DNA of 64,000 nucleotides, from NCBI GenBank assembly GCA_025812035.1, contig GCA_025812035.1_4719.1, one strand, 5' to 3'. Shown piece after piece: positions 7,501 to 39,658 of the stretch. How positions within the stretch are numbered: the stretch's first letter is position 1; every line of letters begins with the position of its first letter. The stretch comes from a phage. A program made the translations under genes and the position numbers. The notes under the pieces were generated by a model that was not told the DNA's origin, made no database searches, and was given only the letters and a program-made list of their open reading frames with translations.

Positions 7501-7530
7501 GCTCCTCCTTCCCTTACGGGTTGGAGGAGC
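7501..7530 (-). promoter_or_regulatory. GC-rich stem-loop, repeat copy 2; its 3' arm GGAGGAG lies 5 nt upstream of the ATG at 7496
   Basis: 28-nt core identical to the 2368 and 41224 copies; in the transcript the hairpin 3' arm overlaps the Shine-Dalgarno position. Confidence 0.45.
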
Positions 7531-7538
7531 ATACTTAA

Positions 7539-12021: not shown

Positions 12022-12027
12022 GGCGTT

Positions 12028-12555: not shown

Positions 12556-12669
12556 AAGCGCACCCTCCTCCAACAATCAATTAAAATGCAAAACACCTCG
12601 AAACCAGAGTGCGATTCGAAGCAAGCGTAAACGGCCTGAACGACCGCATAAAATTCCGCGCATATTACC

Positions 12670-12699
12670 CCCTCTACCCCGACAAAGCGAGGTAGAGGG
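12670..12699 (-). promoter_or_regulatory. intergenic stem-loop (CCCTCTACC/GGTAGAGGG, 9 bp), followed in the transcript by AATATGCGCG
   Basis: perfect inverted repeat between gene 12712-14466 and gene 12028-12555. Confidence 0.4.
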
Positions 12700-12711
12700 A
12701 GAATAATACGA

Positions 12712-14466: not shown

Positions 14467-14618
14467 AAGCACTCCAATCATGGGGCGGTAACCGCACCCA
14501 ACGGTTAAATTGTCGATTATGGTCGTTGCTGATAAGACGACCATAACCAACGATGTTTAATATGTAGTATATTGATATCATGACGTTATGGGGATCTAAG
14601 TCATACCATGGAGACGGC

Positions 14619-14672
14619 GAAAAAAAAAAGAAAATAGGAAAACGGTGTTCATCCTTTTAGGGATGAACACCG
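14619..14672 (-). terminator. rho-independent terminator (12-bp stem, long U tract)
   Basis: inverted repeat CGGTGTTCATCC/GGATGAACACCG at 14643-14672, followed in minus sense by a T-rich run including ten consecutive T (plus-strand A10 at 14620-14629). Confidence 0.7.
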
Positions 14673-14691
14673 CGTACCATTTGTAAGACGA

Positions 14692-15300
14692 TTAACGAGG
14701 AATCAGATCGTTAAGCTCTTCTTCTTCGATAACAAAGAAGCTGTTCTGGTTGTCTAAATCTGATAACAGGACTTGCCCAACAGTGAAGCAAGTTCCACCC
14801 TTCTTAGGCATCCATACCGGCTCATTCGTTACCTTATCAGGATACCATTTGAAACGGTTGGTATCTAAGAAGAACGCAGCTTTGTTCTCCTTGTCGGTAG
14901 AACGATAGCTAACCAGCGCTGGCCACTCAATCCAGGTATTTGTACATGGTACATGTAAAGGATACCATGCGCGCCAGCGCTTACCAGGACGTTTCGGATC
15001 CTCCCAATATTCAGCGGTTAGCACGGCGTTCTTATATTGTTTCTGTACCAGCATCTCAAGAACAGATTCATTACCGATTGGTAAACGCACCAACTCTCTT
15101 TCGACGTGTGATGAATCTAAAGTCACTTCAGCCATATAAAGAGATTTAGGTAATCCAGCCTGTTTTGTGGGTGGTATTACGACACCGGTAACCAACGGTC
15201 TGCTCGGTTTACGTTTCTGTTCTTTCCGATGCGTGTAAAGGAATAACCCTACAGCTACGACAACAAGTATAATAAACAACACTATCTTAATCCAGCTCAT
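14692..15300 (-). CDS. hypothetical membrane-anchored protein
   Basis: 202 codons; N-terminal hydrophobic anchor IVLFIILVVVAVGLFLY. Confidence 0.45.
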   Translation of the reverse strand: MSWIKIVLFIILVVVAVGLFLYTHRKEQKRKPSRPLVTGVVIPPTKQAGLPKSLYMAEVTLDSSHVERELVRLPIGNESVLEMLVQKQYKNAVLTAEYWEDPKRPGKRWRAWYPLHVPCTNTWIEWPALVSYRSTDKENKAAFFLDTNRFKWYPDKVTNEPVWMPKKGGTCFTVGQVLLSDLDNQNSFFVIEEEELNDLIPR

Positions 15301-16046
15301 TCGTCAATATCTCCTTCTACAAACAGAGTCAATTTGATTTCAGGGTCATAGAACATGGTAATCACACCATCTTGCTCTACTGAACGTTGCGCTGTCCATA
15401 TTAACTGTTCATCCCGAATATCAAATTTATGCCGTTCGTCGCTGACCACAGCTTCCGCATCAACGTAATGGTAAACATCACCAAGAGGATTCTCAATCCA
15501 GCCACGCACCATCAAACGTTCTTTTTGTTTACGTGTGAAGAAGCGATACGGATCTTCGCACGTGCACCATACGTCTCCGCTCTCATTAACCAGCTCATCG
15601 TAAACTTTAGAAAGTTCGTCAGGCACAGGAATCAAAATGTTATCCTGATAGCTCGACCAGAAACGACGTACATCTTGGATTAAATCGTCGCCTTGCAGTT
15701 TAGTTACCGTGTTGCTATGGTCGATCTGAGCAGTATCTATATCAAGACGGGTAAACGGAAGAGCGTCTAGGTTTGCCGCCACGATCTCGATGTCGTCATG
15801 GTGAACATGAACCCACCCGTCAAACCATCGGTACCCGTCAGCTTGATATAACGTTGTATGATATCTGACAACATTGATGTCTTCGAACGAGTCCAATAAA
15901 GCTTTAGCTGCTAGAAGCGGCGAAAAGTTCTTTGATTGTCCTGGCTTACGTATTTCTTCTTTGATGAACAATTTACCAAGAATCGGATGTTCGATAACAA
16001 AACCACAGGAAAGCATGATGCTTCCTTGATAACGTGCTTCTTGCAT
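15297..16046 (-). CDS. hypothetical protein
   Basis: 249 codons; 4-nt overlap with the downstream gene suggests translational coupling. Confidence 0.45.
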   Translation of the reverse strand: MQEARYQGSIMLSCGFVIEHPILGKLFIKEEIRKPGQSKNFSPLLAAKALLDSFEDINVVRYHTTLYQADGYRWFDGWVHVHHDDIEIVAANLDALPFTRLDIDTAQIDHSNTVTKLQGDDLIQDVRRFWSSYQDNILIPVPDELSKVYDELVNESGDVWCTCEDPYRFFTRKQKERLMVRGWIENPLGDVYHYVDAEAVVSDERHKFDIRDEQLIWTAQRSVEQDGVITMFYDPEIKLTLFVEGDIDE

Positions 16047-16165
16047 TTTCTATTCCTCAAACAAAAGATTGTCTTTTAACGCGACATGATTACAAGTACA
16101 CAAGTTACTGAATTTCTGTAAAAGTTAATTTTCGTAAAATAAAAGAAAACGTGTCCGTGTTTCCT

Positions 16166-16202
16166 GGTTCTTCCCCTCCACAGCTTCAGGAAGAGAAGAA
16201 CC
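16166..16202 (-). terminator. imperfect 14-bp stem-loop followed by U-rich tract
   Basis: GGTTCTTCCCCTCC / GGAAGAGAAGAACC with two mismatches; minus-sense downstream GUUUUCUUUUAUUUUAC. Confidence 0.4.
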
Positions 16203-16222
16203 GTTTGCTAAGTTGTTATGTA

Positions 16223-16471
16223 TTAAAACGCATTGATTGGGTTGCTCAACGCTTTATCACGGATTTGAATCGCTGCCAGCATTGCTTTCTGGTACGAATC
16301 GTAAGCATCAACAGAAACCGTCAAATCAACCAATTTCTCTAATACGGATTCAGCCGCTTTTACGCGGACGCGGAACTTGGTGATTGCGTTATCTTTGTTA
16401 CGATAAACCGTGATATGGTGCAGCGGTTGAACTTTGGTTTTAACAGATTTAGTTGCTTTGATCGTTTTCAT
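16223..16471 (-). CDS. hypothetical protein
   Basis: 82-codon ORF. Confidence 0.4.
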   Translation of the reverse strand: MKTIKATKSVKTKVQPLHHITVYRNKDNAITKFRVRVKAAESVLEKLVDLTVSVDAYDSYQKAMLAAIQIRDKALSNPINAF

Positions 16472-16524
16472 GATGATTTCCTTCTTTATTAGGATGATTA
16501 CATTTAGTCAGTTTAACAGCATAA

Positions 16525-16551
16525 ACCCTTCCCGCGTAAGGCAGGAAGGGT
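16525..16551 (-). promoter_or_regulatory. intergenic stem-loop (ACCCTTCC/GGAAGGGT) followed in the transcript by TTATGCTGTTAAAC
   Basis: inverted repeat read directly; loop contains CGTAAGG, as in the 2368 family. Confidence 0.4.
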
Positions 16552-16564
16552 ATACGGATTTGTT

Positions 16565-17062
16565 TTACGCGTGTCGTCGTTTACCAAAGAAAATATGATT
16601 GTCTACCACGGTGATATTGGTAGCGTGTTTTTTGAAGTGTTTAGGGCGAAGATGTTTCGCGTTAAAGAATACGGCTCCTCGTGTTGGATCGGCTTTACGG
16701 TAAGCAACAATGTCGTTATTGCGCAATGTTGCGACCTCTCGTGCTATTGCTCTTGCTCGCTCAAAAGCAGCATGATCACGTATGACGATTCGTTGTTGTC
16801 TTGCCCAGGGGAATTGACCTCTTTGCAGTACGACGTCTCTGACGTTCGTAGGGAATCGGTAGTCCATAGATCGATTATGTATTAAAAACGCCACGGAGTA
16901 TTGCCCTCTTACAGATTCGCCCCTGGCTTCCATATACACAGCACATGCGACGATCTCTTTCCGGCAATCGATTCTAGGTCCTGCGTTCACCGATGCTTGA
17001 CTGAACGGTGCGATAAGCAACATAACAAGCCCTAAAACCAACGTGTGTAAAATACCTTTCAT
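16565..17062 (-). CDS. SleB-like cell wall hydrolase with signal peptide
   Basis: N-terminal signal MKGILHTLVLGLVMLLIAPFSQA; core CAVYMEARGESVRGQYSVAFLIHNR...FPTNVRDVVLQRGQFPW matches the Hydrolase_2/SleB pattern. Confidence 0.55.
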   Translation of the reverse strand: MKGILHTLVLGLVMLLIAPFSQASVNAGPRIDCRKEIVACAVYMEARGESVRGQYSVAFLIHNRSMDYRFPTNVRDVVLQRGQFPWARQQRIVIRDHAAFERARAIAREVATLRNNDIVAYRKADPTRGAVFFNAKHLRPKHFKKHATNITVVDNHIFFGKRRHA

Positions 17063-17315
17063 CTTAATAACCTCACGATAAGGTGCTGTCCACTGGCGTC
17101 ATGATAACGCATCCCGTCTATCGGGTTGTTCTATTCAGCGGGCAGCAGGTTAGCGTCAGATGTTTGCCCGACATCCACGACAGAAATAAATGGTACTGAA
17201 AATGCGGTCTCCTCTGGTTTGGCAATAAACATAACGTTGGATAACAGAACCCATTTTCCGCATCCAACGCGGTAAAGGCGTACATCGTTTGAATTCATAT
17301 AGTTTCTCAAAGATG

Positions 17316-17684
17316 TTAACCTCTACCGTCAAGCCATAAGTTGTACTTATCCCGAACGTATGGCTCACGATAAATACGTCGATAGACTTGATGTGGTATA
17401 AACTTGCAATGTACGAGTTCGTCGCTTAATTTCTGACGTCGTTCCATACCGTTGTGTATACGGCGTATCTCCCGGATATTAAAGGTTGTTTTATTCAAGA
17501 GAATAGACATAATGGCAGATCGATGATCTAGATCAAAGATTGACATCAGGCTTCGTATCTCACGTAAAACAACTTCTCTATCGACAAGGATGCGGTTATT
17601 GAACTTAAGATTCTCGGCGATACCCATAACCTTCACCTTCGACACGTCGACATGCCGGTAAAAATAAACACCAGCTTGTTGCAC
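17316..17684 (-). CDS. hypothetical protein
   Basis: 122-codon ORF; N-terminus overlaps the upstream gene, so the true start may be internal. Confidence 0.3.
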   Translation of the reverse strand: MQQAGVYFYRHVDVSKVKVMGIAENLKFNNRILVDREVVLREIRSLMSIFDLDHRSAIMSILLNKTTFNIREIRRIHNGMERRQKLSDELVHCKFIPHQVYRRIYREPYVRDKYNLWLDGRG

Positions 17685-17976
17685 TGAGGATCGTCATTGC
17701 GATGATATCTGCGACATCACTTAGTCGAGCACCAGCTTGCCACATGACGAGTATAAAAAGAACGTATGCGAATCCATACCAGACAAACCGTTTGATGTTA
17801 CGTGTCGACCAAGTACAAATATACAAAAGGGGAAGTTGTCCTATAACACTAACGATGTTTCGGATAACATAATAGGCGCGTTCCGTCGTTGCCTCGAAAT
17901 CGATGTTCGTTGCAGAAATCCCAATCAATATAAAAGTGATAAAGCAATAGATTTTTGCGTACGTTTTTAAACTCAT
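17605..17976 (-). CDS. hypothetical membrane protein (holin-like candidate)
   Basis: 123 codons with several hydrophobic helices; near the cell wall hydrolase gene. Confidence 0.4.
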   Translation of the reverse strand: MSLKTYAKIYCFITFILIGISATNIDFEATTERAYYVIRNIVSVIGQLPLLYICTWSTRNIKRFVWYGFAYVLFILVMWQAGARLSDVADIIAMTILSATSWCLFLPACRRVEGEGYGYRRES

Positions 17977-17991
17977 AACTTTTCCCGTTCG

Positions 17992-18225
17992 TTATTTGCG
18001 TTTCCCTATACTCCTCAACAATGTGACGATAACGAATACCGCTGTCATCAAGAAGAGGAACCATAACCCTACGTTAATTCGGGCGGCGGGTTCATCTACC
18101 ATGAAGAACATCGTTCCACAAAACCCAATAACCATCCAGGTTAAGACCATCCCTGTTAATCCCCGTAGTAGCATATGCCCCATCATGAACTCCTTCTTAC
18201 TTTTTCTGATAAAGCGACGATTCAA
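17992..18225 (-). CDS. small membrane protein
   Basis: 77 codons, two hydrophobic helices. Confidence 0.4.
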   Translation of the reverse strand: MNRRFIRKSKKEFMMGHMLLRGLTGMVLTWMVIGFCGTMFFMVDEPAARINVGLWFLFLMTAVFVIVTLLRSIGKRK

Positions 18226-18359
18226 GTTTTAGAAACATCGCTAACGCGAATGCGATTATTATCGCACGTATCCACATACCTCCTTGACAACTGTTGTACA
18301 ACATAAAGACCAGAGCGATGCCGCCCATATGCAGGCGGCACTTATCGAACAGTGTGGGT

Positions 18360-18587
18360 TTATACATAGGAAATTAATCGTTGAATGATTTTTACTTTGC
18401 CTTTACCTGGGCCTTTCTTGCGACGATTCAACAGACGGATACGGTTTCCAATTACGGAATCGCCATCATAATCAGCACGTAACTGTGGTGGGAGAGCAAG
18501 ATGTTCGCGATTGACACCCGGGTTGTTATAAAAACGATTGAAACTTAAAAGATGGTTAGTTGGAATCATTGTATTGTCCTTATTCAA
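18360..18587 (-). CDS. small basic protein with KKGPGKGK motif
   Basis: 75 codons; ...NRIRLLNRRKKGPGKGKVK...; motif shared with ORFs at 36428-36631 and 36854-37000. Confidence 0.4.
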   Translation of the reverse strand: MNKDNTMIPTNHLLSFNRFYNNPGVNREHLALPPQLRADYDGDSVIGNRIRLLNRRKKGPGKGKVKIIQRLISYV

Positions 18588-18944
18588 TTATTTACCCAGA
18601 TAGAGATATTCAGCGCCCTGAACAACGCCGGTTGTTGGATCAACCAGTACGCGAACCCGTGCGTAGGTCTTGAAAGAGGGATTGAAAACTTCGAAGTCAG
18701 CCACTTTCAATTTCACGCTAGGGTTGATAGGGTTCTTAACACCCGGAAGTTCTTTCGGTAACCCGAAATCGACTCCATCTTCTTCAAGGTCTGCTGGCGT
18801 CATGTTCTCCATGGCCATGTAGACCGCTTTTGCTTTATCGTAAACTTCTGGGCTATCCAGCAACCCAGCCTGTGCTGAACCGACAACACCACCGAACAGA
18901 ATAGCAACAGCAACAAACAATTTCGCTAACGTTTTCATGATCAT
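18588..18944 (-). CDS. secreted hypothetical protein
   Basis: signal-peptide-like N-terminus MIMKTLAKLFVAVAILFGGVVGSAQA. Confidence 0.5.
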   Translation of the reverse strand: MIMKTLAKLFVAVAILFGGVVGSAQAGLLDSPEVYDKAKAVYMAMENMTPADLEEDGVDFGLPKELPGVKNPINPSVKLKVADFEVFNPSFKTYARVRVLVDPTTGVVQGAEYLYLGK

Positions 18945-18973
18945 CTCCTTAAGAGTAAATGGTACAATACTTA

Positions 18974-19396
18974 TTAACGTACGGCAGCAACGCTACCAGC
19001 ACATGCCTGAATATCATCTGTATTTACGATGATGGTTTCGTTAAACGCACGAATACGTGCACGACGTGCTTCTTTAAGGCTAGCAATTGCGTTAGCAGCT
19101 TGATCTGTATTCGCAAGGCTAATAACCGGGATCAAACGCATATCGGGACTGCAGATATTCAATGCTTGGTACACACGTCCGTTAATTCCTACGGTATCAG
19201 ACATCGGATAGTGCGCACGACATTGAAATTGACCCATGACAACAAGCGAACGATCTGAGATACCAATCTGATAACGACCATCTTCACTGTAGGCGTAGCA
19301 GTTTTGACCACGAGCCATCCAGTTAGCTTGTGCTTGTGTGCTAACAAAAGCCAGGGTGGTGACGATAGCAAATACGATATTTTTGAACAGTTTCAT
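18974..19396 (-). CDS. secreted hypothetical protein
   Basis: signal-peptide-like N-terminus MKLFKNIVFAIVTTLAFVSTQAQA. Confidence 0.5.
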   Translation of the reverse strand: MKLFKNIVFAIVTTLAFVSTQAQANWMARGQNCYAYSEDGRYQIGISDRSLVVMGQFQCRAHYPMSDTVGINGRVYQALNICSPDMRLIPVISLANTDQAANAIASLKEARRARIRAFNETIIVNTDDIQACAGSVAAVR

Positions 19397-19453
19397 GATA
19401 GAGATCCTTATTGAAATAAAATCGGTATAAAGCCCCCCATTAGGGGGACCTGA

Positions 19454-19771
19454 TTAGTTTGCACGTAAGAAATGACCCAGAACCGTTACGATTGGGAACA
19501 GTCCTGTGACGGTATTATCACCCGAAAACATCATGTTTGAGCCGTTAACGGTGATGAAGCGGATGTCGGTTGCGGACCCATCAATAGCGACAAAACGCAT
19601 TGAGTTCGGTGGAAGATCCTCAACAACATCCTCGAGGTATTCGCGATTTTCAAAGGCTTCTTTAACACGACGCATGAAACGAATCAAGGTTCCTTCCGCG
19701 TCGGCTTCCAAATGACCTAAGATATCGCGATTGTTGCGAATAGCGAATACAGCCATTTTAAACATACACAT
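19454..19771 (-). CDS. hypothetical protein
   Basis: 105-codon ORF with AAGAGGA upstream. Confidence 0.45.
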   Translation of the reverse strand: MCMFKMAVFAIRNNRDILGHLEADAEGTLIRFMRRVKEAFENREYLEDVVEDLPPNSMRFVAIDGSATDIRFITVNGSNMMFSGDNTVTGLFPIVTVLGHFLRAN

Positions 19772-19835
19772 CTTGACATCCTCTTATATTGGATTGATTG
19801 CTAATAATTCAAGGTGAAGCTAATTACTGCATTGC

Positions 19836-19872
19836 TTCACCTAGGTAATATAGCCGTGAAAATTAATGCATT
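19836..19872. promoter_or_regulatory. 37-nt conserved intergenic element, copy A
   Basis: TTCACCTAGGTAATATAGCCGTGAAAATTAATGCATT; shares an exact 17-mer GTAATATAGCCGTGAAA and flanking TCAC/TGCATT with the element at 49420-49456. Confidence 0.4.
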
Positions 19873-19879
19873 AATCCAT

Positions 19880-20833
19880 TCACGCCTTTGCTATATAGGG
19901 TTGGATCTCATTGATACGTTTAACCACAACCTCAGGGAAAAGTTTGAGTATTTCATCGGGTGGTATTGCACCTTCTGTCCAACGATAGCGTTCAACCTTC
20001 TCGATGCGTGGACTCCCTCCGACGTCAGCGATACGAAAGATACAGGCAATGCCTAAATCAAAACACACGCTGTAAATATCTTCCGTGCCTCCTTTATCAG
20101 CAAGTATTTTCGCAAAATGTTCGTTATCAGGAAGAATGGCTAAATTACGTATACGCCAAACATTATTACCCATTTCTTCAAGGATTGGGTATGTTAAAGT
20201 GTGTCCGTGTCGTGTTAACCATCGATGATTTTCGAGGTAGAAGTCCTTATCCCCTGGCCGGTAACCCAATATCACTCTGGTGTAGAAGAGATTGGGCATG
20301 TCGAGCAGTTCTTGAATCGTTGGACCGGTATACTCCCAGAGACAGATTTGTTTGCGGTCTATATCGTAATCTGTGACGTTACTCACCTCCCAACTTATCG
20401 TAAGTTCGTCAACAACATGCCAACCGAAAGTGTGTTCGCAGCCAAGCAGATTAACAATCGCTGATATCTCATGCTTGTCAAATACCCCCAAATTACATGG
20501 TGGCTGCATCGTACGTAATGGTTCCCACAACACACTGTAATCATAAAGCAAATGGCGACATAAACTTTTTGTTAAGGGTGTATGTTCAGTAAACAGTGGA
20601 AGAATCACCGTATCTAACAGTGGACGTAATGGATGGTTGTCAGGCGGTAGAGGAGAAACCAGACGACCTCCTTCTTTAGGGTAATCAAGACCAAACCCGT
20701 AACGCTCCGAAATGAGTGCGATCAGCACTTTTGCTACGCGATTACGTAGCATGCGATGGATATCATCACTGTAACTGAATTTCGGTTTATTTCCGCAAAC
20801 GAAGGTGAAGTATCTAGGTGATAACTTAACCAT
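19880..20833 (-). CDS. hypothetical protein
   Basis: start revised to ATG at 20833 (AAGGAAAA upstream), which removes a 62-nt overlap; 317 aa, no motif recognised. Confidence 0.45.
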   Translation of the reverse strand: MVKLSPRYFTFVCGNKPKFSYSDDIHRMLRNRVAKVLIALISERYGFGLDYPKEGGRLVSPLPPDNHPLRPLLDTVILPLFTEHTPLTKSLCRHLLYDYSVLWEPLRTMQPPCNLGVFDKHEISAIVNLLGCEHTFGWHVVDELTISWEVSNVTDYDIDRKQICLWEYTGPTIQELLDMPNLFYTRVILGYRPGDKDFYLENHRWLTRHGHTLTYPILEEMGNNVWRIRNLAILPDNEHFAKILADKGGTEDIYSVCFDLGIACIFRIADVGGSPRIEKVERYRWTEGAIPPDEILKLFPEVVVKRINEIQPYIAKA

Positions 20834-20843
20834 AATCTTTTCC

Positions 20844-21290
20844 TTAATCCAAATAGTACGTGATGGATAGGTCTTTTCCATTGAATACAATATCCGTACA
20901 GTCATGGATCGTCGGTAATACCATTTTGGCGGCTACCGGAACATACGCCTGCAACTCCATGAAGTTATCCATACGGAATGCACGACGCACCATCAACGGT
21001 GTTAGTGTAAATGTTACGCTGACGTTACCGCTTGGAGTCAAGTGCATTATCGCATGCCCATGATCGCACCAACAATGGTTTTCGATCCATCCAGTGTAAA
21101 TCAGAATATTTTTATCCTCGTCGTAATAAGCAATGCCAGTCTGCTTTAAACGGCTGGTAAATCGAGAGGCTTGCTCATAGCCTGCACGCAACATTCGAGC
21201 AACCAGGCGAGTGTTGTTAGCGATTCGATTCTGTTCGTTGGTTTTTGTGGTTTTGAAAAGTTCGATACGTTCTGCTTTTGTAATTTGCAT
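20844..21290 (-). CDS. hypothetical protein
   Basis: 148-codon ORF. Confidence 0.45.
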   Translation of the reverse strand: MQITKAERIELFKTTKTNEQNRIANNTRLVARMLRAGYEQASRFTSRLKQTGIAYYDEDKNILIYTGWIENHCWCDHGHAIMHLTPSGNVSVTFTLTPLMVRRAFRMDNFMELQAYVPVAAKMVLPTIHDCTDIVFNGKDLSITYYLD

Positions 21291-21295
21291 GATTA

Positions 21296-21709
21296 CTAAC
21301 CTAATGAATTGCGTTTAAATAATTGGATGTATGGGGTACCAAATAAAGGACTGTATGAATGTATTCGGTTCTCCTCTGATTCGTAATACTCGATAGGCCA
21401 CGATATTGGTTTAGGTAAGCGATCTAACGCTTGCAACACGGCGAGTTTAACGCTATTACTTTCGATCGGATACGGAAGTACCGTTGACGAACAGAACACA
21501 TGTGTTCGATGCAAATAAATGAGATGCTGCTGTAGCTTAGACAAACGCCTACGCTTGATTAAGAAACCAGTTACGTGGCAATCGGAGTGATCGTAGTGAT
21601 AACGTGCGCTATCGAAATAAACCTGTTCTCCTCTAACAATGAGATACTTTATCGCTTGCATGAAAGAGTAACGGCGTAATTCTCCATTAGCCAACATGAC
21701 ACGAATCAT
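21296..21709 (-). CDS. hypothetical protein
   Basis: 137-codon ORF. Confidence 0.4.
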   Translation of the reverse strand: MIRVMLANGELRRYSFMQAIKYLIVRGEQVYFDSARYHYDHSDCHVTGFLIKRRRLSKLQQHLIYLHRTHVFCSSTVLPYPIESNSVKLAVLQALDRLPKPISWPIEYYESEENRIHSYSPLFGTPYIQLFKRNSLG

Positions 21710-22308
21710 TACTTAGGCTCCAGAATCGGTCCGAACAACCAGAAAGTCAGACGCTGGTAGATCTGTTCGATGACTGCGGATTCTGTTTGCTCTTCTAGTG
21801 ATTTCCCTTTTTTATGCTGTATTTCTGGCGGGATGTCGCCAGTGTAAACATACCCTGTTGAGAAGTCCCATGCTAGCCGTTTACCGAAAGTGGGTAAGAA
21901 CACCTCTTCGAATCGGAACGCTTTCGAATTCCAATGAAGCAGCTGATCGGATTCAACATGTAAAGCTTTGTTACGTTTGCTTGGCATGTTTCCGAAGTAC
22001 TGAACGATAGCTGATTTCATAACCCGGTCTGCGAAGTCTTTGGCTTCGGCCTCATCGAGGGGAGGCAGGCGATGCGATAGATTCAGCTTGCGTTGTTCAA
22101 CATCAATCTTACGCATCGCTTTAATCAAATCACTAGGAACGATTTTACCCTTATGTCCTTCCTGTCGGTGTATGAAACACCCCTGGAATAACACGCAAAG
22201 TTCTTGAGGTGCGGTACTTTCCATTCGTCCGTAAGCAACGATCACCGAACGGCGACGGTCGATAACTTCGCGGATAAACCGCGGCTCAGTAATACTCACC
22301 ACTGTCAT
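21709..22308 (-). CDS. hypothetical protein
   Basis: 199-codon ORF. Confidence 0.45.
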   Translation of the reverse strand: MTVVSITEPRFIREVIDRRRSVIVAYGRMESTAPQELCVLFQGCFIHRQEGHKGKIVPSDLIKAMRKIDVEQRKLNLSHRLPPLDEAEAKDFADRVMKSAIVQYFGNMPSKRNKALHVESDQLLHWNSKAFRFEEVFLPTFGKRLAWDFSTGYVYTGDIPPEIQHKKGKSLEEQTESAVIEQIYQRLTFWLFGPILEPK

Positions 22309-22352
22309 TTAAAGCCCTCTTTATCTTTTTCCATTTCTCTTTACATAACCAC

Positions 22353-23039
22353 TTAAGACGTTGCCATCTTATCTTCCAGAGACTTCTTCGGTAAACCATG
22401 GATAACTCCTTTCGGGGTTAAGAACACACAGTCTGGATTCTGCGTTCGCGAACGGTCGTCTGGAGTGTTCAACGAGAACAACAACGCAGAAATACCTTTT
22501 GTCCGGTTTAACGTCGCTACGATCACGTCAAGCTGTCGTAGTGCATCCGATACCGTTCGATGAGGAACGATTCGTGACTGTTTGAAGCTGGCTAACCGCC
22601 AAGTCTCGAACAAACAACGTAGTTTAAACACGTCGGACGGAACAGCAGTAGATCCCTGTTCGATAACCTCAACCCGATCAGCTTCAGGGTAACCTACAGC
22701 AACCGCACTAAAGTGTCTTACCCCGTTATGAAAATCATCGATAGATGCTTCAGCGTATTTACATACCGTGCCAGAAACGACCATCACTTTTGCTAAACCG
22801 CGATAGTTGATCGTCAGCGGAATACGAAATACACGTAAAGCATGTTCCGGATTTAATGAGACGTCGTTAACCTTTGTTGCGGTCAGCTTACCACGCTCGT
22901 AACGTGCGGTGAACGGCAGACCGTCATAAACGGGATTGATCACAACGCCCCCTGGGGAGGCGTTAGCATTGAGATGGGTGTTAAGCCAATCGGATACTTC
23001 CTGTCTACTAGTTACGATTAACATAAAACGATCCTCCAT
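22353..23039 (-). CDS. hypothetical protein
   Basis: start revised to ATG at 23039 (AAAGGA upstream) to avoid overlap with the methyltransferase gene. Confidence 0.45.
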   Translation of the reverse strand: MEDRFMLIVTSRQEVSDWLNTHLNANASPGGVVINPVYDGLPFTARYERGKLTATKVNDVSLNPEHALRVFRIPLTINYRGLAKVMVVSGTVCKYAEASIDDFHNGVRHFSAVAVGYPEADRVEVIEQGSTAVPSDVFKLRCLFETWRLASFKQSRIVPHRTVSDALRQLDVIVATLNRTKGISALLFSLNTPDDRSRTQNPDCVFLTPKGVIHGLPKKSLEDKMATS

Positions 23040-23049
23040 TTCTTTTCCT

Positions 23050-23700
23050 TTATTCATGACGAGTATCTTCCAAATCATCCCTTTGTTTTGTAAATTCTGA
23101 TTGCTTGCGATAAACCGTCCATGAGTCGTATATGCCGTGAAAGTTCAGATGACGTGCGTTTAAGTTAACGGTGAATTCCTCCACGTTAACGAAATCTGAA
23201 CGAAGCATCAGATGAAAGTTATCGTCCCCGGTGCAGCCGCCGTATCCTTCGCCCTGATAGACCAAAAGCTGATGTGGTTGAATACGCGAGGCAACCAACG
23301 CAGCTTGTGGTTCGCAGTAAGGCGGCCACGACAGTAAAATAACATCGTACTGTGAAAGATCGATGTTCGTGTAGTCGACCTGCTGAATGTCCTCGATAAA
23401 CGGGTGGGGATGTAATTCCGTATCGTAAGCGGTAATGTCCTCAACACCAAGTTTACGCAGGACGTAAGTCAGGTAACCTGTCCCACAACCCAGGTCAGCG
23501 ACACGTCTACCGTAACAGATGTTCGCCAACTGGAGTGCTGTATCCATAGTTAACAACGACCATCCAACGTGCTGGGTATATTCTTCACGTACATCCCACT
23601 GTTGGCGGTACGTCATGGGTTCTATGATATCCGCAAGCCGTGGATACGGCAACGGCATTTTGGTTTCGCCTTGCGTGAGTAATGCAATAACGTCGTTCAT
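23050..23700 (-). CDS. putative SAM-dependent methyltransferase
   Basis: motif I VADLGCGTGYLT and a downstream LLSWPPY (PPY-type motif IV, as in amino-methyltransferases); substrate not determinable. Confidence 0.5.
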   Translation of the reverse strand: MNDVIALLTQGETKMPLPYPRLADIIEPMTYRQQWDVREEYTQHVGWSLLTMDTALQLANICYGRRVADLGCGTGYLTYVLRKLGVEDITAYDTELHPHPFIEDIQQVDYTNIDLSQYDVILLSWPPYCEPQAALVASRIQPHQLLVYQGEGYGGCTGDDNFHLMLRSDFVNVEEFTVNLNARHLNFHGIYDSWTVYRKQSEFTKQRDDLEDTRHE

Positions 23701-23716
23701 TTTATTTCCTTTTTAT

Positions 23717-23744
23717 CGGCATAAGCCCTCCCATAACGGGAGGG
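23717..23744 (-). promoter_or_regulatory. stem-loop (CCCTCCC-loop-GGGAGGG) followed by CTTATGCCG box
   Basis: hairpin 23726-23744 plus box 23717-23725 in minus sense, between the stop of gene 23750-24178 and the start of the methyltransferase gene. Confidence 0.45.
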
Positions 23745-23749
23745 TACGA

Positions 23750-24178
23750 TTATTCATTTTCAATAACTTTAAGATTCGGTGTACCGAGTGTTTTCTTCAC
23801 GAGTGCCTCGGCAACGCGTTTCTCGATGAAATCGGTTGCATTGCTTCCGTCTATCGTACGCATATCACCACGGAAGTTATTGAAGACCATAAACAAGTCG
23901 CAACCATCAATGGGTATCGCAAGGTCGTAGCTGACTTGCGATGCTGTGAAGTGGACACCAACGACAACAGCGGGGACGAATTCAACGGCGGTGTTATCTC
24001 CTTCTTCTCCAGTTCCGAACGGAAGCTCAACACGATCGCCGATAGAAAATTGCGCAACATCACCGATGATACGAGTTAACGCTGCTCGTTGCATGTCGGC
24101 GATGGTTTCCTTATTTGCATCGCATGGTAAATCTAAGACTTCTTCCAGCGTGAGGAATTTACGATCGAACCAACTCAT
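23750..24178 (-). CDS. hypothetical protein
   Basis: 142-codon ORF. Confidence 0.4.
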   Translation of the reverse strand: MSWFDRKFLTLEEVLDLPCDANKETIADMQRAALTRIIGDVAQFSIGDRVELPFGTGEEGDNTAVEFVPAVVVGVHFTASQVSYDLAIPIDGCDLFMVFNNFRGDMRTIDGSNATDFIEKRVAEALVKKTLGTPNLKVIENE

Positions 24179-24179
24179 G

Positions 24180-24719
24180 TTAAGCTCCTTTCTGTTTTGT
24201 TTTGATTGATGATGTTAACCAGGACGATCTTACAGTGAAACCCTCAGACTCATAGAACGCCTGGGCTTCGTCGTTATCAGCACGAACATCCAGACCGATA
24301 GAATGCCCACCGCATCGGTAAGCGATGTTACGTGCTTCATTCATCAAGGCGTGGCCGATACCACGTCCACGGTATTCTGGTTTTACAACAATCGATGTAA
24401 CGTCATGAATGCCCATATGGCTCTCTGTATTCACTTCCAAGAGACCTACTGGTATCGAAGCGACGGCGTCGATCATAACGACCAACTTTGCGGTGTCCGG
24501 TAAACGCTTTTCTAATTCTAAGGCATCGTATTCACGTTTTAAGTCAGGGATATTCTCGAACATAAACGTGGTGGCCCACGCCTCTGATTCTACATCGTCG
24601 AGAATACGATACAGTTCACGAATCTGTTGTTTATGTGGATAAAGGTGTGGGTCAGCGGCCGTTGAGGCGATAACGCAATAGAACGGTCGTTCATTAATAA
24701 CTACTGTTTTGATGCTCAT
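24180..24719 (-). CDS. GNAT family N-acetyltransferase
   Basis: motif A VVKPEYRGRGIGHALMNEA and C-terminal ...AQAFYESEGF; start overlaps the stop of the upstream HTH gene by 4 nt. Confidence 0.65.
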   Translation of the reverse strand: MSIKTVVINERPFYCVIASTAADPHLYPHKQQIRELYRILDDVESEAWATTFMFENIPDLKREYDALELEKRLPDTAKLVVMIDAVASIPVGLLEVNTESHMGIHDVTSIVVKPEYRGRGIGHALMNEARNIAYRCGGHSIGLDVRADNDEAQAFYESEGFTVRSSWLTSSIKTKQKGA

Positions 24720-25222
24720 GCTAAAATTCCCTCATTACCTAACAGTCGATTACAGTGACGTCGGTACATTTGACAAAGTGTTGTGATTTGATAAAGTTTG
24801 TTATAGCGTATCTCGATACGTTTTTGCACCTCTTTCCATGGAAGTTTATCGTATTGTCGGTAACGATGAATTTCATTTAACATACGAAGACGAGTAGGAT
24901 CGGTATTCTTTATTGTCGTGAGCTTCACGCGTTGGTATCCGCGCTGTAGTCCCGATTCCGAATACGTGACACCAAACTCATCCTGAATGATAGTGATGAT
25001 CTCCCGCCATCGGCGCTTCTCACCGTCACGTAAGTGCACAACCCGTGCCAGAATGTCGTTCCGATTACGATGACTCAGTTTAATATTAAGCATCGAAGCG
25101 ATCGCGCTAATTGCTCTCTGACTCCGTCCTAATGCTTCACCGATTTCTTTTGATGTCATGACGCCAGCGTTTCGGCGTATGAATGCGATTTCGGTTGTTG
25201 TGTATTCTTTACCTGCTGCCAT
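24716..25222 (-). CDS. Myb/SANT-like HTH repeat protein (array member 6)
   Basis: repeats with pattern W/Y-x2-[ED]-E-x-x-x-[LI]...IA..L.RS..AI; paralogous to the five upstream genes; alternative start at 25159 possible. Confidence 0.5.
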   Translation of the reverse strand: MAAGKEYTTTEIAFIRRNAGVMTSKEIGEALGRSQRAISAIASMLNIKLSHRNRNDILARVVHLRDGEKRRWREIITIIQDEFGVTYSESGLQRGYQRVKLTTIKNTDPTRLRMLNEIHRYRQYDKLPWKEVQKRIEIRYNKLYQITTLCQMYRRHCNRLLGNEGILA

Positions 25223-25692
25223 TTCTTACCACGTGTGTTATAATAGTAACGCTGACAAAGATGTGTGTGATGATACTCCCGCTTGAACTCAACACTGATG
25301 ATGCGAGCAACTTCTCTCCAGTTAACCCCTTCACGTCGAAGTGCTGTGATGCGGTCTGAAATTTTGCACCATTCGCCAGGATCGTATCGTCGTAGCTTAT
25401 GACGTCGTATCACAGAGGCGACGCTTGCTTTCGAGCGGCCAAGGTGATTCGCCATTTGTTTAACCGAGTATCTGTGGATATTGCTACGGATATAGGAAAG
25501 CTCATCGTCAGTATACGTGGCGTTGGTTCTCGGCGAAGGGAACAACACGTACAACTTATTCTTAATCGCGCTTTCTGTACGTTGAAATACAGTAACCAGA
25601 TCACTAATCGGTGGTCTGGGTATCTGATATGCGTAATTCTCGAGGCGTGTGAGTTCCTCATCTGTCCAGCGACGGTACTTGCGCATGGGCAA
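25156..25692 (-). CDS. Myb/SANT-like HTH repeat protein (array member 5)
   Basis: three repeats (RWTDEELTRLENYAY...; TYTDDELSYIRSNIHRYSVKQMANHLGRSKASVASVI; third repeat ...CQRYYY). Confidence 0.5.
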   Translation of the reverse strand: MPMRKYRRWTDEELTRLENYAYQIPRPPISDLVTVFQRTESAIKNKLYVLFPSPRTNATYTDDELSYIRSNIHRYSVKQMANHLGRSKASVASVIRRHKLRRYDPGEWCKISDRITALRREGVNWREVARIISVEFKREYHHTHLCQRYYYNTRGKKWQQVKNTQQPKSHSYAETLAS

Positions 25693-26161
25693 CTCCTTTG
25701 TTTTTCATGTAGTAGCACCAACGTTGATACAACGCATGTTTATTCGTTGTAATCCCAAATTTAACAACAACGTCGTACGTAATAACATTCCAATTTTGGG
25801 TAACGTTAAGTCGTTCCGCGATAAACGCGATGATCGCTTCCCGTTCTTGCTTGGTTAATGCACGACGAATTCCATTAAGCCGTATAAACTGACGAACTGA
25901 GTCATACGAACGGTTTAAATCGTACGCGATCTCACGCAACGATTTTTGTTTGATTACGGACTTAATATACGCACGTTCTTCTTCCGTATATGGTCGATGC
26001 TTTTGGCGTTGGCGTATTCCCAAACGCCCCAGACACGCGTCGATGCTGGCGTGTGTTCGTCCTGTCCGTTGTGCAATTTCATCAATCGTCAGCGACGTGT
26101 TCAAGTACAGATGTGTAACATCTTTTAACTCATCGTTACGCCACGGCCGAGGTTGTCCCAT
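25658..26161 (-). CDS. Myb/SANT-like HTH repeat protein (array member 4)
   Basis: three repeats (PWRNDELKDVTHLY...; PYTEEERAYIKSVIKQKSLREIAYDLNRSYDSVRQFI; ...YQRWCYY). Confidence 0.5.
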   Translation of the reverse strand: MGQPRPWRNDELKDVTHLYLNTSLTIDEIAQRTGRTHASIDACLGRLGIRQRQKHRPYTEEERAYIKSVIKQKSLREIAYDLNRSYDSVRQFIRLNGIRRALTKQEREAIIAFIAERLNVTQNWNVITYDVVVKFGITTNKHALYQRWCYYMKNKGVAHAQVPSLDR

Positions 26162-26639
26162 CGTGTATCCCTCTTTTCTTTCTATGATGCCACCAACGCT
26201 GATAAACAGCTTGCTTCGTCCGTGTTATGCCAAAATGCGCATTAACCCGTTCAGCAATGTGGTACCAATCCTGCGTTTCTTCTAACAATGCATCAACGAA
26301 GGCTATGAAGATCTTAGTATCATCCTCGCTTAACCGCTTGAAGCCATGGCGGTGTGCTATTGTTCGAATACTGTTTGGATCTCTGTTTAAATCGCGTGCA
26401 AGCTGTTTGTAACTTTTGTGCTTACAGTGTAGCCTGATATGTTCCAATTCATCGACGCTGAAACGTTTATGTGGTTTACGGCGTTCGACGTTTAAGTACC
26501 TCAACCTCGATTCGATTGCACCGTACGTCGTTTCCATGATTTCCGCGATTTCACGGATTTTTAATTTCGGACGACGGTCGTACAATTTCAGCAACTGTTC
26601 GTCGTACTGACGATTCCATCGTCGTATAGGTGGTTTCAC
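26136..26639 (-). CDS. Myb/SANT-like HTH repeat protein (array member 3)
   Basis: three repeats (RWNRQYDEQLLKLY...; FSVDELEHIRLHCKHKSYKQLARDLNRDPNSIRTI; ...YQRWWHH); GTG start. Confidence 0.5.
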   Translation of the reverse strand: MKPPIRRWNRQYDEQLLKLYDRRPKLKIREIAEIMETTYGAIESRLRYLNVERRKPHKRFSVDELEHIRLHCKHKSYKQLARDLNRDPNSIRTIAHRHGFKRLSEDDTKIFIAFVDALLEETQDWYHIAERVNAHFGITRTKQAVYQRWWHHRKKRGIHDGTTSAVA

Positions 26640-26652
26640 AACTAAGATTCTC

Positions 26653-27120
26653 CTATTCTACGCGTCTTAATGCCTGAGTGTAGTAAAGAGCATGAACTCC
26701 GCTTAACGTGTAATGGGTGTTAAATTCGTTATTGATGATATTCCGTATTCTCTCCCAGGTTTTCTTCTCTTTTCTAAGAGTGTGTATTCGATGATAAATC
26801 ATCTCTCTACGTTGCGCCTTGCATGCAACGATGCCGTAACGGTAGCAGAGTTTAGCGATCGCGTCCACGCTACGATTGAACATTACGGCGGCTTCTTTTA
26901 CGCTGTGTGTTTTAAGATAATCGGCTAACATTACCCGTTCTTCGAAACAACAATAGCGGTGACGTGACATGAGTTTCCAGCGCTTGCGATTGCGGTTAAT
27001 TCGACCTTGAACCGAACCTTCCGTTCGGCCAAGCCGTACCGCAATCTCTTGCATCGGGATACCGTTTCGATAGAGGGTAATCAACAACGCATCTTCTTCG
27101 GGTGTCCAGTCCTTGACCAT
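26653..27120 (-). CDS. Myb/SANT-like HTH repeat protein (array member 2)
   Basis: WTPEEDALLITLYRNGIPMQEIAVRLGRTEGSVQGRI is a close match to the SANT/Myb pattern, followed by two further repeats. Confidence 0.55.
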   Translation of the reverse strand: MVKDWTPEEDALLITLYRNGIPMQEIAVRLGRTEGSVQGRINRNRKRWKLMSRHRYCCFEERVMLADYLKTHSVKEAAVMFNRSVDAIAKLCYRYGIVACKAQRREMIYHRIHTLRKEKKTWERIRNIINNEFNTHYTLSGVHALYYTQALRRVE

Positions 27121-27132
27121 AATGCCACCCCA

Positions 27133-29820
<2,688 letters not shown>

Positions 29821-29840
29821 AAAATTGTCAAAACGTACAT

Positions 29841-29875
29841 CGGCATAACGCCCGTGCCCGCCCGCAATGGGAGGG
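29841..29875 (-). promoter_or_regulatory. stem-loop (CCCUCCC/GGGCGGG with one G-U pair) followed 7 nt later by GTTATGCCG box
   Basis: read directly; intergenic between gene 29901-30533 and gene 29509-29820. Confidence 0.35.
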
Positions 29876-29900
29876 ACACAGGCAATACGCTTTTATTTCC

Positions 29901-30533
29901 TCAGGACTTCACGACGCATTCGACTTCGTCGTTCATATAGGCTTCGTATAAAGACAGCACTTCCTTCATTTTAATTTCAGGTAACGCAACGGAACGAATC
30001 GCTTTTAGGATATTGCGTGTTTGATGGTGTTTAACCTTCGCCTCGCGTAGTTTACAGAATTGACGGATACAGGTATTAACCTTGCCACCGTCTGCACGTT
30101 CGAGGGCGACATGCAGTTTCAGGTCCAGTAATACTTCCGTGAGTTCCTGGGTGGCAGGATCGTTACGAATAAGCCGCACGGTACGTTCATCCGGGTTCAG
30201 CATCGTGAGAAACTGAAGCTTGACCTGTTCAGGTACGGGTTTCGTGTTCATCATGATGGCGTCAAACTGTTCTTTAACATCCAACTCATTGAACACATAA
30301 CGTTCGATATGTACGACGTGTGCTTTTCCTGATTCACCGTAAACCGCCATCGCGCGATAATCATCAAACAACACGACATACATCAGATCTTGTTCCGGTC
30401 CGATGGTACCATCCATGAGTTTCGGCGCGTGCTTCTTAAAGAAGCCATAGCGAACAGCCTCATCCGGCATGAGCGTCCACGCTTTAACGGGTTGCTTTAC
30501 GAGTTCCATGTAACACCTCATCAAGATTATCAC
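29901..30533 (-). CDS. hypothetical protein
   Basis: 210-codon ORF; start may be internal (M9) given overlap with the upstream ORF. Confidence 0.45.
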   Translation of the reverse strand: MIILMRCYMELVKQPVKAWTLMPDEAVRYGFFKKHAPKLMDGTIGPEQDLMYVVLFDDYRAMAVYGESGKAHVVHIERYVFNELDVKEQFDAIMMNTKPVPEQVKLQFLTMLNPDERTVRLIRNDPATQELTEVLLDLKLHVALERADGGKVNTCIRQFCKLREAKVKHHQTRNILKAIRSVALPEIKMKEVLSLYEAYMNDEVECVVKS

Positions 30534-30804
30534 TTACACCTGGCGGTACTACGATACCGGTGCGAATCACAGCAGCAACTTCCTGCATGCCTTTACCCTT
30601 CAACGCATATGTTTCATGTACCACATTACGTCGAGTCGTTAATCCAACAAATTTACATACCACCATGTTGTTTTCTGAAAGGTAAGCGGTATCAAGTTCA
30701 CCATGCAACAATTCTTTTTCTTTGGTATCGATACCTAATAATGCAATTTGATAAGCCGAAAGTTTCCAATAACGCATGTTATCACCCAAACTGTTAAGAA
30801 GCAT
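30484..30804 (-). CDS. hypothetical protein
   Basis: 106-codon ORF; overlaps neighbours at both ends, so boundaries are uncertain. Confidence 0.35.
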   Translation of the reverse strand: MLLNSLGDNMRYWKLSAYQIALLGIDTKEKELLHGELDTAYLSENNMVVCKFVGLTTRRNVVHETYALKGKGMQEVAAVIRTGIVVPPGVSDNLDEVLHGTRKATR

Positions 30805-31210
30805 CCTGTTTAATGTTGATGACTATTTCCGTTCGAACCGGGTTGGTCAGCACAGCTCGCATGCGTTCAAGCATCGCTAAGTTATCCGTAACCACCACAT
30901 CGGCGTAACACAGTGGATGACTTTCGAACGCTTCGGTGTCGCTTACTAACAGAACACCCATCACATTTACGTATTGCGGTATACGACCACGAATGCGCTG
31001 CCACAGGTCATGAGTAAGGTCTTCGCTTTCTAATGCAACCACGACGACAGGACTGATATTTACCGGGAAACGCGGATGTACCGTACGACGAAATGTTATC
31101 CAGTTTTCGATGTGGGATAACGCAAGTTCAAGGGAACAACATTTTGGAGAAATCTGTATGTTTATTTGTTGAATCAATGAAAGGGGGTTTTGTACAGTCG
31201 CTTCAGCCAT
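30794..31210 (-). CDS. hypothetical protein
   Basis: 138-codon ORF. Confidence 0.4.
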   Translation of the reverse strand: MAEATVQNPLSLIQQINIQISPKCCSLELALSHIENWITFRRTVHPRFPVNISPVVVVALESEDLTHDLWQRIRGRIPQYVNVMGVLLVSDTEAFESHPLCYADVVVTDNLAMLERMRAVLTNPVRTEIVINIKQDAS

Positions 31211-32188
31211 TTACTTTTTCCTGAAAATCAATGTCGGTAAACCGTTCCTTACGGCATAGTACAACACTAAGAGGTTAATCTTACCAGCGGATACCGTAAG
31301 CATCTTACGACGACGTGGTAAACTAACCGGTACGGTCGACGCCATCGTCGCACTGTTCTTAAACGTTTGGGAATAACGTCGCAGCGATGCTTCACCTAAC
31401 AACGGAAGGAAAAGATCCTCGGTAAGAACATCATCGCAGATATACGTGATCGCAAGTAACGATGGATTCCACTCGTTCAGGAACTCGAAAATCTCGTTTG
31501 CGATACCCAACGCATTATTAGGAAGCGGAACCTCACGAACGTATTTCTGATTGCCTTTATCCAACAGGATTCTCGACATACAGTAATCGTGGATAATACC
31601 CGCAACGTCATCGGCTGTTTCTGCTGACTGCATCAACGCTTGTGCTTCTTCCCAGGCCAGTTGACGTTTTGTTTCGTAATAGGTTGGTTTCAATACCGCG
31701 TAGAAATCGTGGATCAAACGACCAACGTCCCCACGAGTTTTTGCTGCCAGCGCGATGGCGTATGCTTTCTTCTCCGCATCCGTTAAGATCTGATTACGCC
31801 AGAGCACATATTCGTCTAACAGCTCGGTGTATTTAGCCGTCCATTCAGAGGAAAGATAATAACCGATACTATCAATCAACTCGTGTGTTAAAACACCCAG
31901 ATTCTCGCGTCGTGGATCGGCCGACGGCTCGTAGACGAAAGGTAGCTTCGGTTTTTCAAAACCACCGGCTACAATGGTATCTGAAAAAGCGTTAGCAAAA
32001 ACACCCATCGGTTTCCACGACGTAAGGAGATCCTGATACAGCATCGGATGGACGTTATTAATCGCTGTGAATTTATCATCGAAAAGACTCACGCTTGGAT
32101 GTTCGGCATTCGCAAGCTCAAAATAAATTCTTTCGAGCAATGCCTTTACCGCATCGCGTGTCTTATCAATCGGGCCAACAGAAGCCAT
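31211..32188 (-). CDS. hypothetical protein
   Basis: 325-codon ORF; no motif recognised. Confidence 0.45.
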   Translation of the reverse strand: MASVGPIDKTRDAVKALLERIYFELANAEHPSVSLFDDKFTAINNVHPMLYQDLLTSWKPMGVFANAFSDTIVAGGFEKPKLPFVYEPSADPRRENLGVLTHELIDSIGYYLSSEWTAKYTELLDEYVLWRNQILTDAEKKAYAIALAAKTRGDVGRLIHDFYAVLKPTYYETKRQLAWEEAQALMQSAETADDVAGIIHDYCMSRILLDKGNQKYVREVPLPNNALGIANEIFEFLNEWNPSLLAITYICDDVLTEDLFLPLLGEASLRRYSQTFKNSATMASTVPVSLPRRRKMLTVSAGKINLLVLYYAVRNGLPTLIFRKK

Positions 32189-32582: not shown

Positions 32583-32658
32583 TTTTTTCACCTCGTTTGG
32601 TTATTGTCTGATCTCATACCTTTACCTAAGCGTACCCCGCCATTAAGACGGGGGCTTA

Positions 32659-39551: not shown

Positions 39552-39616
39552 TTTAATCTCCTCTCCTGGCTTCAGAGAATTCTCAAAATCCGTTAGTTTT
39601 GATAGACGGGATAAGA

Positions 39617-39646
39617 CGGCATAAAAGCCTCCCGTATTGGGAGGCT
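39617..39646 (-). promoter_or_regulatory. stem-loop (AGCCTCCC/GGGAGGCT, 8 bp) followed by TTTATGCCG box
   Basis: hairpin 39626-39646 and box 39617-39625 in minus sense, about 65 nt upstream of the revised start at 39551. Confidence 0.45.
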
Positions 39647-39658
39647 CCATTAATCGGC

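Follow-up and report, generated by a model that had tools for sequence, protein, structure and literature searches.

On the minus strand of a 64,000-nucleotide stretch of phage DNA, here called the window, positions 23717 to 23744 carry a short GC-rich hairpin followed by a conserved box, and the same arrangement recurs at other loci. This raises the question whether such elements end transcripts, start them, or serve the processing or translation of RNA. The original prediction favoured a role at transcript 3' ends within a transcription system specific to the phage, and the evidence presented here supports this leaning. Judged by sequence comparison and by position relative to genes, the elements are quite likely transcription terminators of a phiKZ-like jumbo phage (chimallivirus).

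The source phage and the hairpin-plus-box family

The window shares 91% identity over 12 kb with Escherichia phage vB_EcoM_Goslar, a nucleus-forming jumbo phage of the chimalliviruses (Chimalliviridae) with a 237-kb genome and E. coli as host, and is, on the strength of this identity, a relative of that phage. Two genes of the window (56853-58859 and 60933-63266) encode RNA polymerase subunits of the phiKZ type. These were identified with PHROGs (phrog_3015, E=5e-170, and phrog_3295, E=8e-181) and the annotation of Goslar, while Pfam returned no match for either subunit. By analogy with phiKZ, phages of the Goslar type would transcribe their own genomes by virion and non-virion multisubunit polymerases, independently of the host enzyme. 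In the segment 12001-32000, matches to sigma-70-like promoters are depleted (20 versus 36.6 +/- 5.6 in shuffles) and classic terminators consisting of a hairpin and a T run are not enriched (24 versus 18.9 +/- 3.8 in shuffles), which is consistent with the host polymerase playing no part in transcription of the genome. A search of the whole window with Rfam at gathering thresholds gave no match.

Five exact copies of the octamer TTATGCCG had been named in the original prediction. All five are confirmed; each is positioned just 3' of a hairpin and oriented like the neighbouring genes. A sixth exact copy at 15427 on the plus strand lies inside a coding sequence and lacks a hairpin. With six occurrences in the window versus 2.4 expected, the octamer alone is mildly over-represented. 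The composite of hairpin and box is a far stronger signal, as TATG with a fold of -14 kcal/mol or lower within 4 nt upstream occurs 32 times versus 7.7 +/- 2.6 times in 20 dinucleotide shuffles. The highest-ranking entries form one coherent family, with 18 copies counted by strand at about 15 loci. In this family, a GC-rich hairpin, pyrimidine in its 5' arm and purine in its 3' arm, is followed by the tail box (T)TATG-C-Y-G(T), mostly 0-3 nt after the stem; TATG is present in 17 of the 18 copies. The looser variants that had been proposed alongside the exact copies are borne out as well. Further copies were found at 51676-51714 (plus strand), 59591-59635 (minus strand), 41212-41267 (both strands), 19420-19451 (minus strand) and 7488-7531 (minus strand). 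The elements are listed below; E values refer to the covariance model R1, trained on phiKZ copies and described in the next section, and z values to shuffled sequences.

2360-2411, both strands: putative bidirectional terminator at a convergent junction (2352-2416); hairpin 2368-2399 with AA-TATGCTG (plus) and T-TATGTTA (minus); E=7.4e-4 (plus) and 0.066 (minus); Goslar orthologue annotated as putative terminator.
7488-7531, minus strand: doubtful member; hairpin core as in 2368-2399, then CTGC-TATGGCG; E=0.081.
12658-12703, minus strand: putative terminator element, loose variant; CTCCCTCTACCTCG-CTTTGT-CGGGGTAGAGGGGG, then TAA-TATGCGC; -25.4 kcal/mol; conserved in Goslar.
16514-16551, minus strand: putative terminator element; ACCCTTCCTGC-CTTAC-GCGGGAAGGGT, then TTATGCTGT; -22.8 kcal/mol, z = -5.8; E=4.9e-5; a G.U pair in the stem (16523) is A-U in Goslar, so that pairing is kept.
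19420-19451, minus strand: putative variant element with TATA for TATG; AGGTCCCCC-TAAT-GGGGGGCTT, then TATACCG; E=0.029; same TATA variant in Goslar.
23714-23745, minus strand: putative terminator element; CCCTCCC-GTTAT-GGGAGGG (23726-23744), then C-TTATGCCG (23717-23724); 5 nt past the stop codon of gene 23750-24178 and 17 nt ahead of the start of gene 23050-23700; -15.2 kcal/mol; E=0.0019; the loop differs in Goslar, stem and box are kept.
29841-29885, minus strand: putative terminator element; interrupted long hairpin GCCTGTG-T-CCCTCCC...GGGCGGG-CACGGGC, then G-TTATGCCG; -31.6 kcal/mol, z = -4.25; missed by R1 owing to the longer, interrupted stem; TTATGCTG in the Goslar copy.
39614-39648, minus strand: putative terminator element; GAGCCTCCC-AATAC-GGGAGGCTT, then TTATGCCGT; E=1.6e-4; Goslar orthologue is a 'putative transcriptional terminator' in GenBank.
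41212-41267, both strands: putative two-sided element (41202-41270); hairpin 41224-41255 with GA-TATGCTG (plus) and T-TATGTTC (minus); E=0.0029 (plus) and 0.021 (minus); hairpin core inverted relative to Goslar.
47586-47617, minus strand: putative terminator element; ACCCTCCC-TTCG-GGGAGGGT, then TTATGCCG; E=2.6e-4.
51676-51714, plus strand: putative terminator element between two plus-strand genes; GAAGCTCTGCCTG-ATGT-CAGGCAGAGCTT, then TATGCTG; stem not of the pyrimidine/purine type; -23.7 kcal/mol, z = -5.5; E=0.0011; Goslar orthologue annotated as putative terminator.
53240-53293, both strands: putative bidirectional terminator at a convergent junction (53228-53297); 16-bp hairpin 53246-53282 with GTT-TATGCGC (plus) and A-TATGCTA (minus); -34.2 and -32.8 kcal/mol; weak matches to R1.
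59591-59635, minus strand: putative terminator element; GCCCTCCCTCTCC...GGTGGGAGGG, then TTT-TATGTTGT; top R1 score in the window, E=6.5e-6.
60453-60497, minus strand: putative terminator element; CCTCCTCCTGCC-CATGT-GGTGGGAGGAGG, then ATGTT-TATGCTG; -23.9 kcal/mol, z = -4.5; E=0.059.
63490-63534, plus strand: putative terminator element at a convergent junction; CCCTCCCGCG...CGTAGGGAGGG, then TA-TTTATGCCGT; E=0.003; follows gene 63121-63486 (plus), confirmed as a gene by phrog_3455 (E=1e-20), and is followed by gene 63551-63940 on the minus strand.

The stems of the window have folding energies from -15 to -34 kcal/mol, with z from -2.5 to -5.8, and the G of TATG lies 5-9 nt (mode 6) past the GC-rich stem. 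The asymmetry of the two arms that had been described for the exact copies is a property of the family: 5' arms consist of 93% pyrimidines in the box elements of the window versus 53% in hairpins of coding regions, and the respective values in Goslar are 87% and 50%. The box is not equally frequent in coding DNA without hairpins; instead, TTATGCYG is about 15 times denser in intergenic DNA. A hairpin precedes all seven intergenic TATGCYG sequences in the window and 24 of the 26 in Goslar, which leaves none and two, respectively, without one. When hairpins were selected without regard to strand, the RNA of the box strand was the more stable one at 19 of 26 one-sided loci (p=0.035); the significance is modest, and copies within one genome are not independent. 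An earlier stability test with elements selected by box strand (33 versus 11) was set aside, being biased by the selection.

In the doubtful copy at 7488-7531, ORF 6780-7496 probably begins at the ATG of the box and would use the 3' arm GGAGGAG as its ribosome-binding site. The region between the orthologues of gp087 and gp088 spans about 870 nt in the window (6669-7538) versus 177 nt in Goslar. The extra DNA contains ORF 6780-7496 (238 aa), which starts at the TATG after hairpin 7501-7530 and for which PHROGs gave no match. An identical 24-nt hairpin core, CCTCCAACCCGTAAGGGAAGGAGG, is found at 2372-2395 (plus), 7504-7527 (minus) and 41228-41251 (minus), with no occurrence expected, and is part of a cassette of roughly 55 nt at no fewer than ten junctions of Goslar. 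The inverted orientation of the core at 41224-41255 suggests flipping or exchange between palindromic copies of the putative terminator.

Relation to the mapped terminators of phiKZ and 201phi2-1

Transcript ends have been mapped in two relatives. In the ONT-cappable-seq study of phiKZ (Putzeys et al. 2024, microLife, PMC10914365), 133 termination sites were mapped, 61 of which share the motif 5'-BCCYCCCCHWWDGGGRRGGBYTTATKYYGT-3', and most of the motif-bearing terminators were classed as intrinsic by ARNold. For 201phi2-1, Poppeliers et al. (2024, PMC11512511) describe a 'motif A' in 59 of 132 terminators, which 'strongly resembles' the phiKZ motif. The element of the window shares with both motifs the CCYCCC 5' arm, the loop of 4-5 nt, the GGGRGG 3' arm and the tail TTAT-K-Y-Y-G-T at equal distance from the stem. 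It is likewise located after genes, often in a bidirectional arrangement, and the genome is also that of a chimallivirus with its own multisubunit RNA polymerases. On this sequence agreement, the element is a putative phiKZ-type terminator, of a kind that has been published for two relatives and is partly annotated in Goslar. The two types are not identical in detail. At position 5 of the tail, the present copies nearly always have G, where phiKZ has G or T; at the base after it they mostly have C, whereas T is more frequent in phiKZ. In addition, many stems of the window are longer (9-16 bp) than those of phiKZ, and a dispersed identical 24-nt core is a feature of the present element.

Several searches with the phiKZ motif lead to the same loci. 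The full published consensus matches 39616-39645 with three mismatches (0 expected), and its 3' half, GGRGGNNTTATKYYG, occurs seven times in the window with at most one mismatch versus 0.8 expected. The copy at 47586-47617, ACCCTCCCttcgGGGAGGGTtTATGCCG, is nearly identical to the copy GCCCTCCCttcgGGGAGGGCttTATGTTGT located after the major capsid gene of phiKZ. A covariance model built from the 18 copies of the window was dropped, as the variable lengths of loops and stems caused MAFFT to misalign the stems; a model from phiKZ copies was used instead. This model, R1, was built from only seven phiKZ copies, all of uniform architecture. In the window it identifies nine full-length copies with E<=0.003 and five more with E<0.1, all of them on the strand expected from the local genes, and it misses or scores weakly the long-stem copies at 29841, 12658 and 53240. 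In Goslar it identifies 23 sites, several of which coincide with features annotated in GenBank as 'putative transcriptional terminator', including the orthologues of the elements at 39614 and 51676.

The tail is conserved beyond the window. In Goslar, its consensus (n=45) is T-TATG-C(60%)-Y(89%)-G(64%)-T(53%), in line with TTATKYYGT, and an unbiased count of k-mers 3' of intergenic hairpins gave TTAT, TATG, TATGC and TTATG as the most enriched ones (11-14 fold in Goslar). Between the window and Goslar, loops change (23723, 39623) and stems and boxes are kept; two boxes differ by a CCG to CTG change, which stays inside the Y-Y of the consensus. A scan of IMG/VR with the exact core revealed multiple copies, often on both strands, in many contigs of 200-325 kb, lengths that would fit known phiKZ-like phages. 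In 154 distinct instances from IMG/VR, TTATGY is continued by Y (94%), then G (64%) and T (60%). The fact that TTATG-Y-Y-G-T is kept in phages of Pseudomonas and Escherichia as well as in these metagenomic viral contigs suggests that it is recognised by the conserved phage polymerases and not tied to a particular host.

The comparison with phiKZ also bears on the claim that these elements are not ordinary intrinsic terminators. The part concerning the U tract stands, since three to four T are followed by the conserved G-C-Y-G-T instead of a U tract of 7-9 nt. A standard scan for hairpins with a T run (at least five T in the 8 nt after the stem) accordingly flags none of the five box elements in 12001-32000, where the only clear classic terminator is located at 14642-14673. 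Exclusion from the intrinsic class is an overstatement, as the phiKZ sites with the same motif were assigned to this class by ARNold (PMC10914365). In several respects the elements do resemble bacterial intrinsic terminators: a GC-rich hairpin lies just past a gene, a T-containing stretch is located directly 3' of the stem, A/T-rich upstream bases are able to pair with the tail, and the arrangement is bidirectional at convergent genes. A further difference is the enzyme, which is presumably a phage polymerase without alpha and omega subunits.

Placement at gene ends and the alternative readings

The position of the elements relative to genes distinguishes a stop signal from a free-standing promoter. 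Of the intergenic hairpins, 11 of 32 (window) and 45 of 129 (Goslar) have TATG within the following 6 nt, as compared to 6 of 137 and 16 of 586 hairpins in coding regions. In the whole assembled genome of Goslar, for which a crude ORF map was used, a gene on the same strand runs into the hairpin at 39 of the 45 intergenic sites, with a median distance of 15 nt from stop codon to hairpin, and only one of the 45 has a downstream gene without an upstream one. The argument made for the copy at 63491, that no gene follows on the same strand, can be generalised, as this also applies to 19 of the 39 Goslar sites. Furthermore, a single hairpin carries a box on each side at the convergent junctions 2352-2416 and 53228-53297 and also at 41202-41270. 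Taken together, gene-end placement, the sites without a downstream gene and the two-sided boxes at convergent junctions indicate that the box belongs to a stop signal. The possibility of a pure promoter for a phage-specific system, raised in the original prediction, is unsupported, because the boxes are tied to hairpins and gene ends. The box is not obligatory, since about half of the strong intergenic hairpins in Goslar (35 of 74 loci) lack it.

A coupled function would add to termination and not take its place. In a fused terminator-promoter, the hairpin would stop the polymerase and the TATG of the box would restart the non-virion polymerase with the G as +1. Such a fusion is suggested by the late promoter of the non-virion polymerase of phiKZ (Yakunina et al. 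2015, PMC4666361): its consensus, 5'-TATG-3', in which the G is the start site, corresponds to the most conserved part of the box. Between genes of the same direction, only 17-70 nt separate the box from the next start codon, too few for another promoter, and TATGCYG is commoner at Goslar sites with a following gene on the same strand (14 of 20 versus 6 of 19, p=0.026). This association was not reproduced in 100 kb of phiKZ, however (5 of 10 versus 8 of 17, p=1.0), and half of the boxes (19 of 39 in Goslar) would be promoters without a gene, as would those flanking the hairpins of convergent junctions. Late promoters of phiKZ such as P119L, which has been studied best, have neither an upstream hairpin nor a conserved downstream sequence, the sequence downstream of P119L being different from that of the box, whereas the present box is tied to hairpins and gene ends and not to gene starts. 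Moreover, the phiKZ consensus permits T at the start-site G (TTATK), and the available portions of the phiKZ and 201phi2-1 transcriptome papers do not report start sites at terminators. TATG without a hairpin shows no strand bias in intergenic regions of Goslar (23 sense versus 29 antisense) and no flanking consensus, which agrees with the literature, according to which middle and late promoters cannot be predicted bioinformatically. On balance, a fused terminator-promoter appears unlikely.

A specific form of this coupling is conceivable, in which the pocket of the beta-like subunit that reads the late-promoter TATG also reads the tail, holds the enzyme after the hairpin for release, and then allows a restart at the same G. 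This must be regarded as decidedly unlikely. If true, one signal of four bases would serve as stop and start for a non-canonical multisubunit polymerase, which would bear on the puzzle of how a promoter of four bases achieves specificity. The overlap of the tail with the late-promoter TATG is in any case a cheap lead for laboratories that have purified phiKZ polymerase at hand.

Transcript ends can also arise by processing. In this case, a nuclease would cut the RNA or trim it up to a protective hairpin, and the box would be a site for a nuclease or an RNA-binding protein. The long-read 3' ends mapped in phiKZ do not by themselves separate termination from processing, and the same applies to 201phi2-1. 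The tail is not a U tract, and a stable 3' hairpin would protect mRNAs that are exported from the phage nucleus. A paper on the RNA-binding protein ChmC reports no bound motif. Evidence against processing comes from reporter assays with eight mapped terminators of 201phi2-1, which may or may not carry the motif: placed between two reporters in uninfected cells, they stopped transcription in vivo and cut distal expression, several of them more strongly than lambda T0 (PMC11512511). Most of the conserved box would also lie 3' of the trimmed end and hence be absent from the mature RNA, and a strand-specific box at a fixed distance from the stem is what is expected of a signal that is read during transcription. 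Processing is thus a very improbable origin of these elements.

Finally, the purine arm GGGAGG resembles a Shine-Dalgarno sequence, and the ATG of the box could be a start codon, so that the hairpin would regulate translation of a mini-ORF. In most copies GGAGG is indeed located 4-6 nt ahead of ATG, all five exact copies would start with Met-Pro, and the ATG at 7488-7531 is probably a true start codon. This reading was rejected as hardly credible, because the resulting ORFs comprise 6-10 codons and have nothing in common past Met-Pro, the Shine-Dalgarno sequence is locked in a stem of -15 to -34 kcal/mol, copies with TATA (19420-19451) or TATT (phiKZ) destroy the ATG, and convergent junctions carry boxes on both strands.

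Possible mechanism, related signals and further elements

Termination thus being the preferred reading, the following course of events can be proposed. The nascent RNA of the element would fold into a stable hairpin of a C-rich and a G-rich arm. This hairpin, together with the adjoining short and weak U-U-A-U, would cause the RNA to be released shortly past the stem, within a few nucleotides, in a manner similar to intrinsic termination. The conserved tail (T)TATG-C-Y-G-T would replace the long U tract of bacteria and form part of the stop signal. At convergent junctions, one hairpin with a box on each side would stop transcription from both directions; a two-way stop by a single hairpin is feasible because a hairpin with a pyrimidine arm and a purine arm has an identical reading on either strand. 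Directly seen are the family of sequences, where its members lie with respect to genes, and their identity with the motif of mapped phiKZ 3' ends; we infer that 3' ends form at the elements of the window and that one of the two phage polymerases responds to them.

The distance of 5-9 nt past the stem is roughly where classical terminators release RNA. The tail contains GCCG and is not U-rich, so that the RNA-DNA hybrid would not be weak and the classical mode of release may not apply as such. As a guess, the G-Y-Y-G-T part of the tail could act as a sequence-dependent pause of the kind described by the bacterial pause consensus: the RNA would end in a pyrimidine, G would be added next, and the G-rich 3' arm would lie about 10 nt upstream. 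Another parallel is provided by the class II pause and termination signals of T7 RNA polymerase, a single-subunit enzyme, which consist of a short conserved sequence without a hairpin. As in T7, a phage polymerase would respond to a short conserved sequence and not just to a hairpin with a U run; in contrast to T7, a hairpin is always present here.

As putative terminators, the elements mark the ends of transcription units in a poorly annotated jumbo phage of E. coli, for which the GenBank record of Goslar annotates only some of the sites. The phiKZ-trained model, or simply the rule of a hairpin plus TATGCYG, locates such sites genome-wide and can be used for the annotation of operons. The element could also serve as a compact insulator for phage engineering.

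Some further intergenic elements were observed. The hairpin CCCCGTC-TTAAT-GGCGGGG at 32635-32653 (minus) is followed by TACGCTT in the window and by A-TATGCTT in Goslar, apparently a box that has decayed in just one of these two closely related phages. Intergenic hairpins of another kind, without a TATG box, are found at 14642-14673 (minus), 40260-40283 (minus) and 49527-49555 (plus). Of these, 14642-14673 is a terminator of the classic type, its T run being long, and the tails of the remaining two are rich in T; the annotation of Goslar lists the orthologues of these two as putative terminators. An AT-rich intergenic motif, tttCACGGC-TATATTAC-yTAnGTGA, is located at 19837-19864 (minus) and 49421-49448 (minus). 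Goslar has about eight further copies, including one upstream of the nuclear shell gene, and the motif looks like a candidate early promoter of this phage group, used by the virion RNA polymerase.
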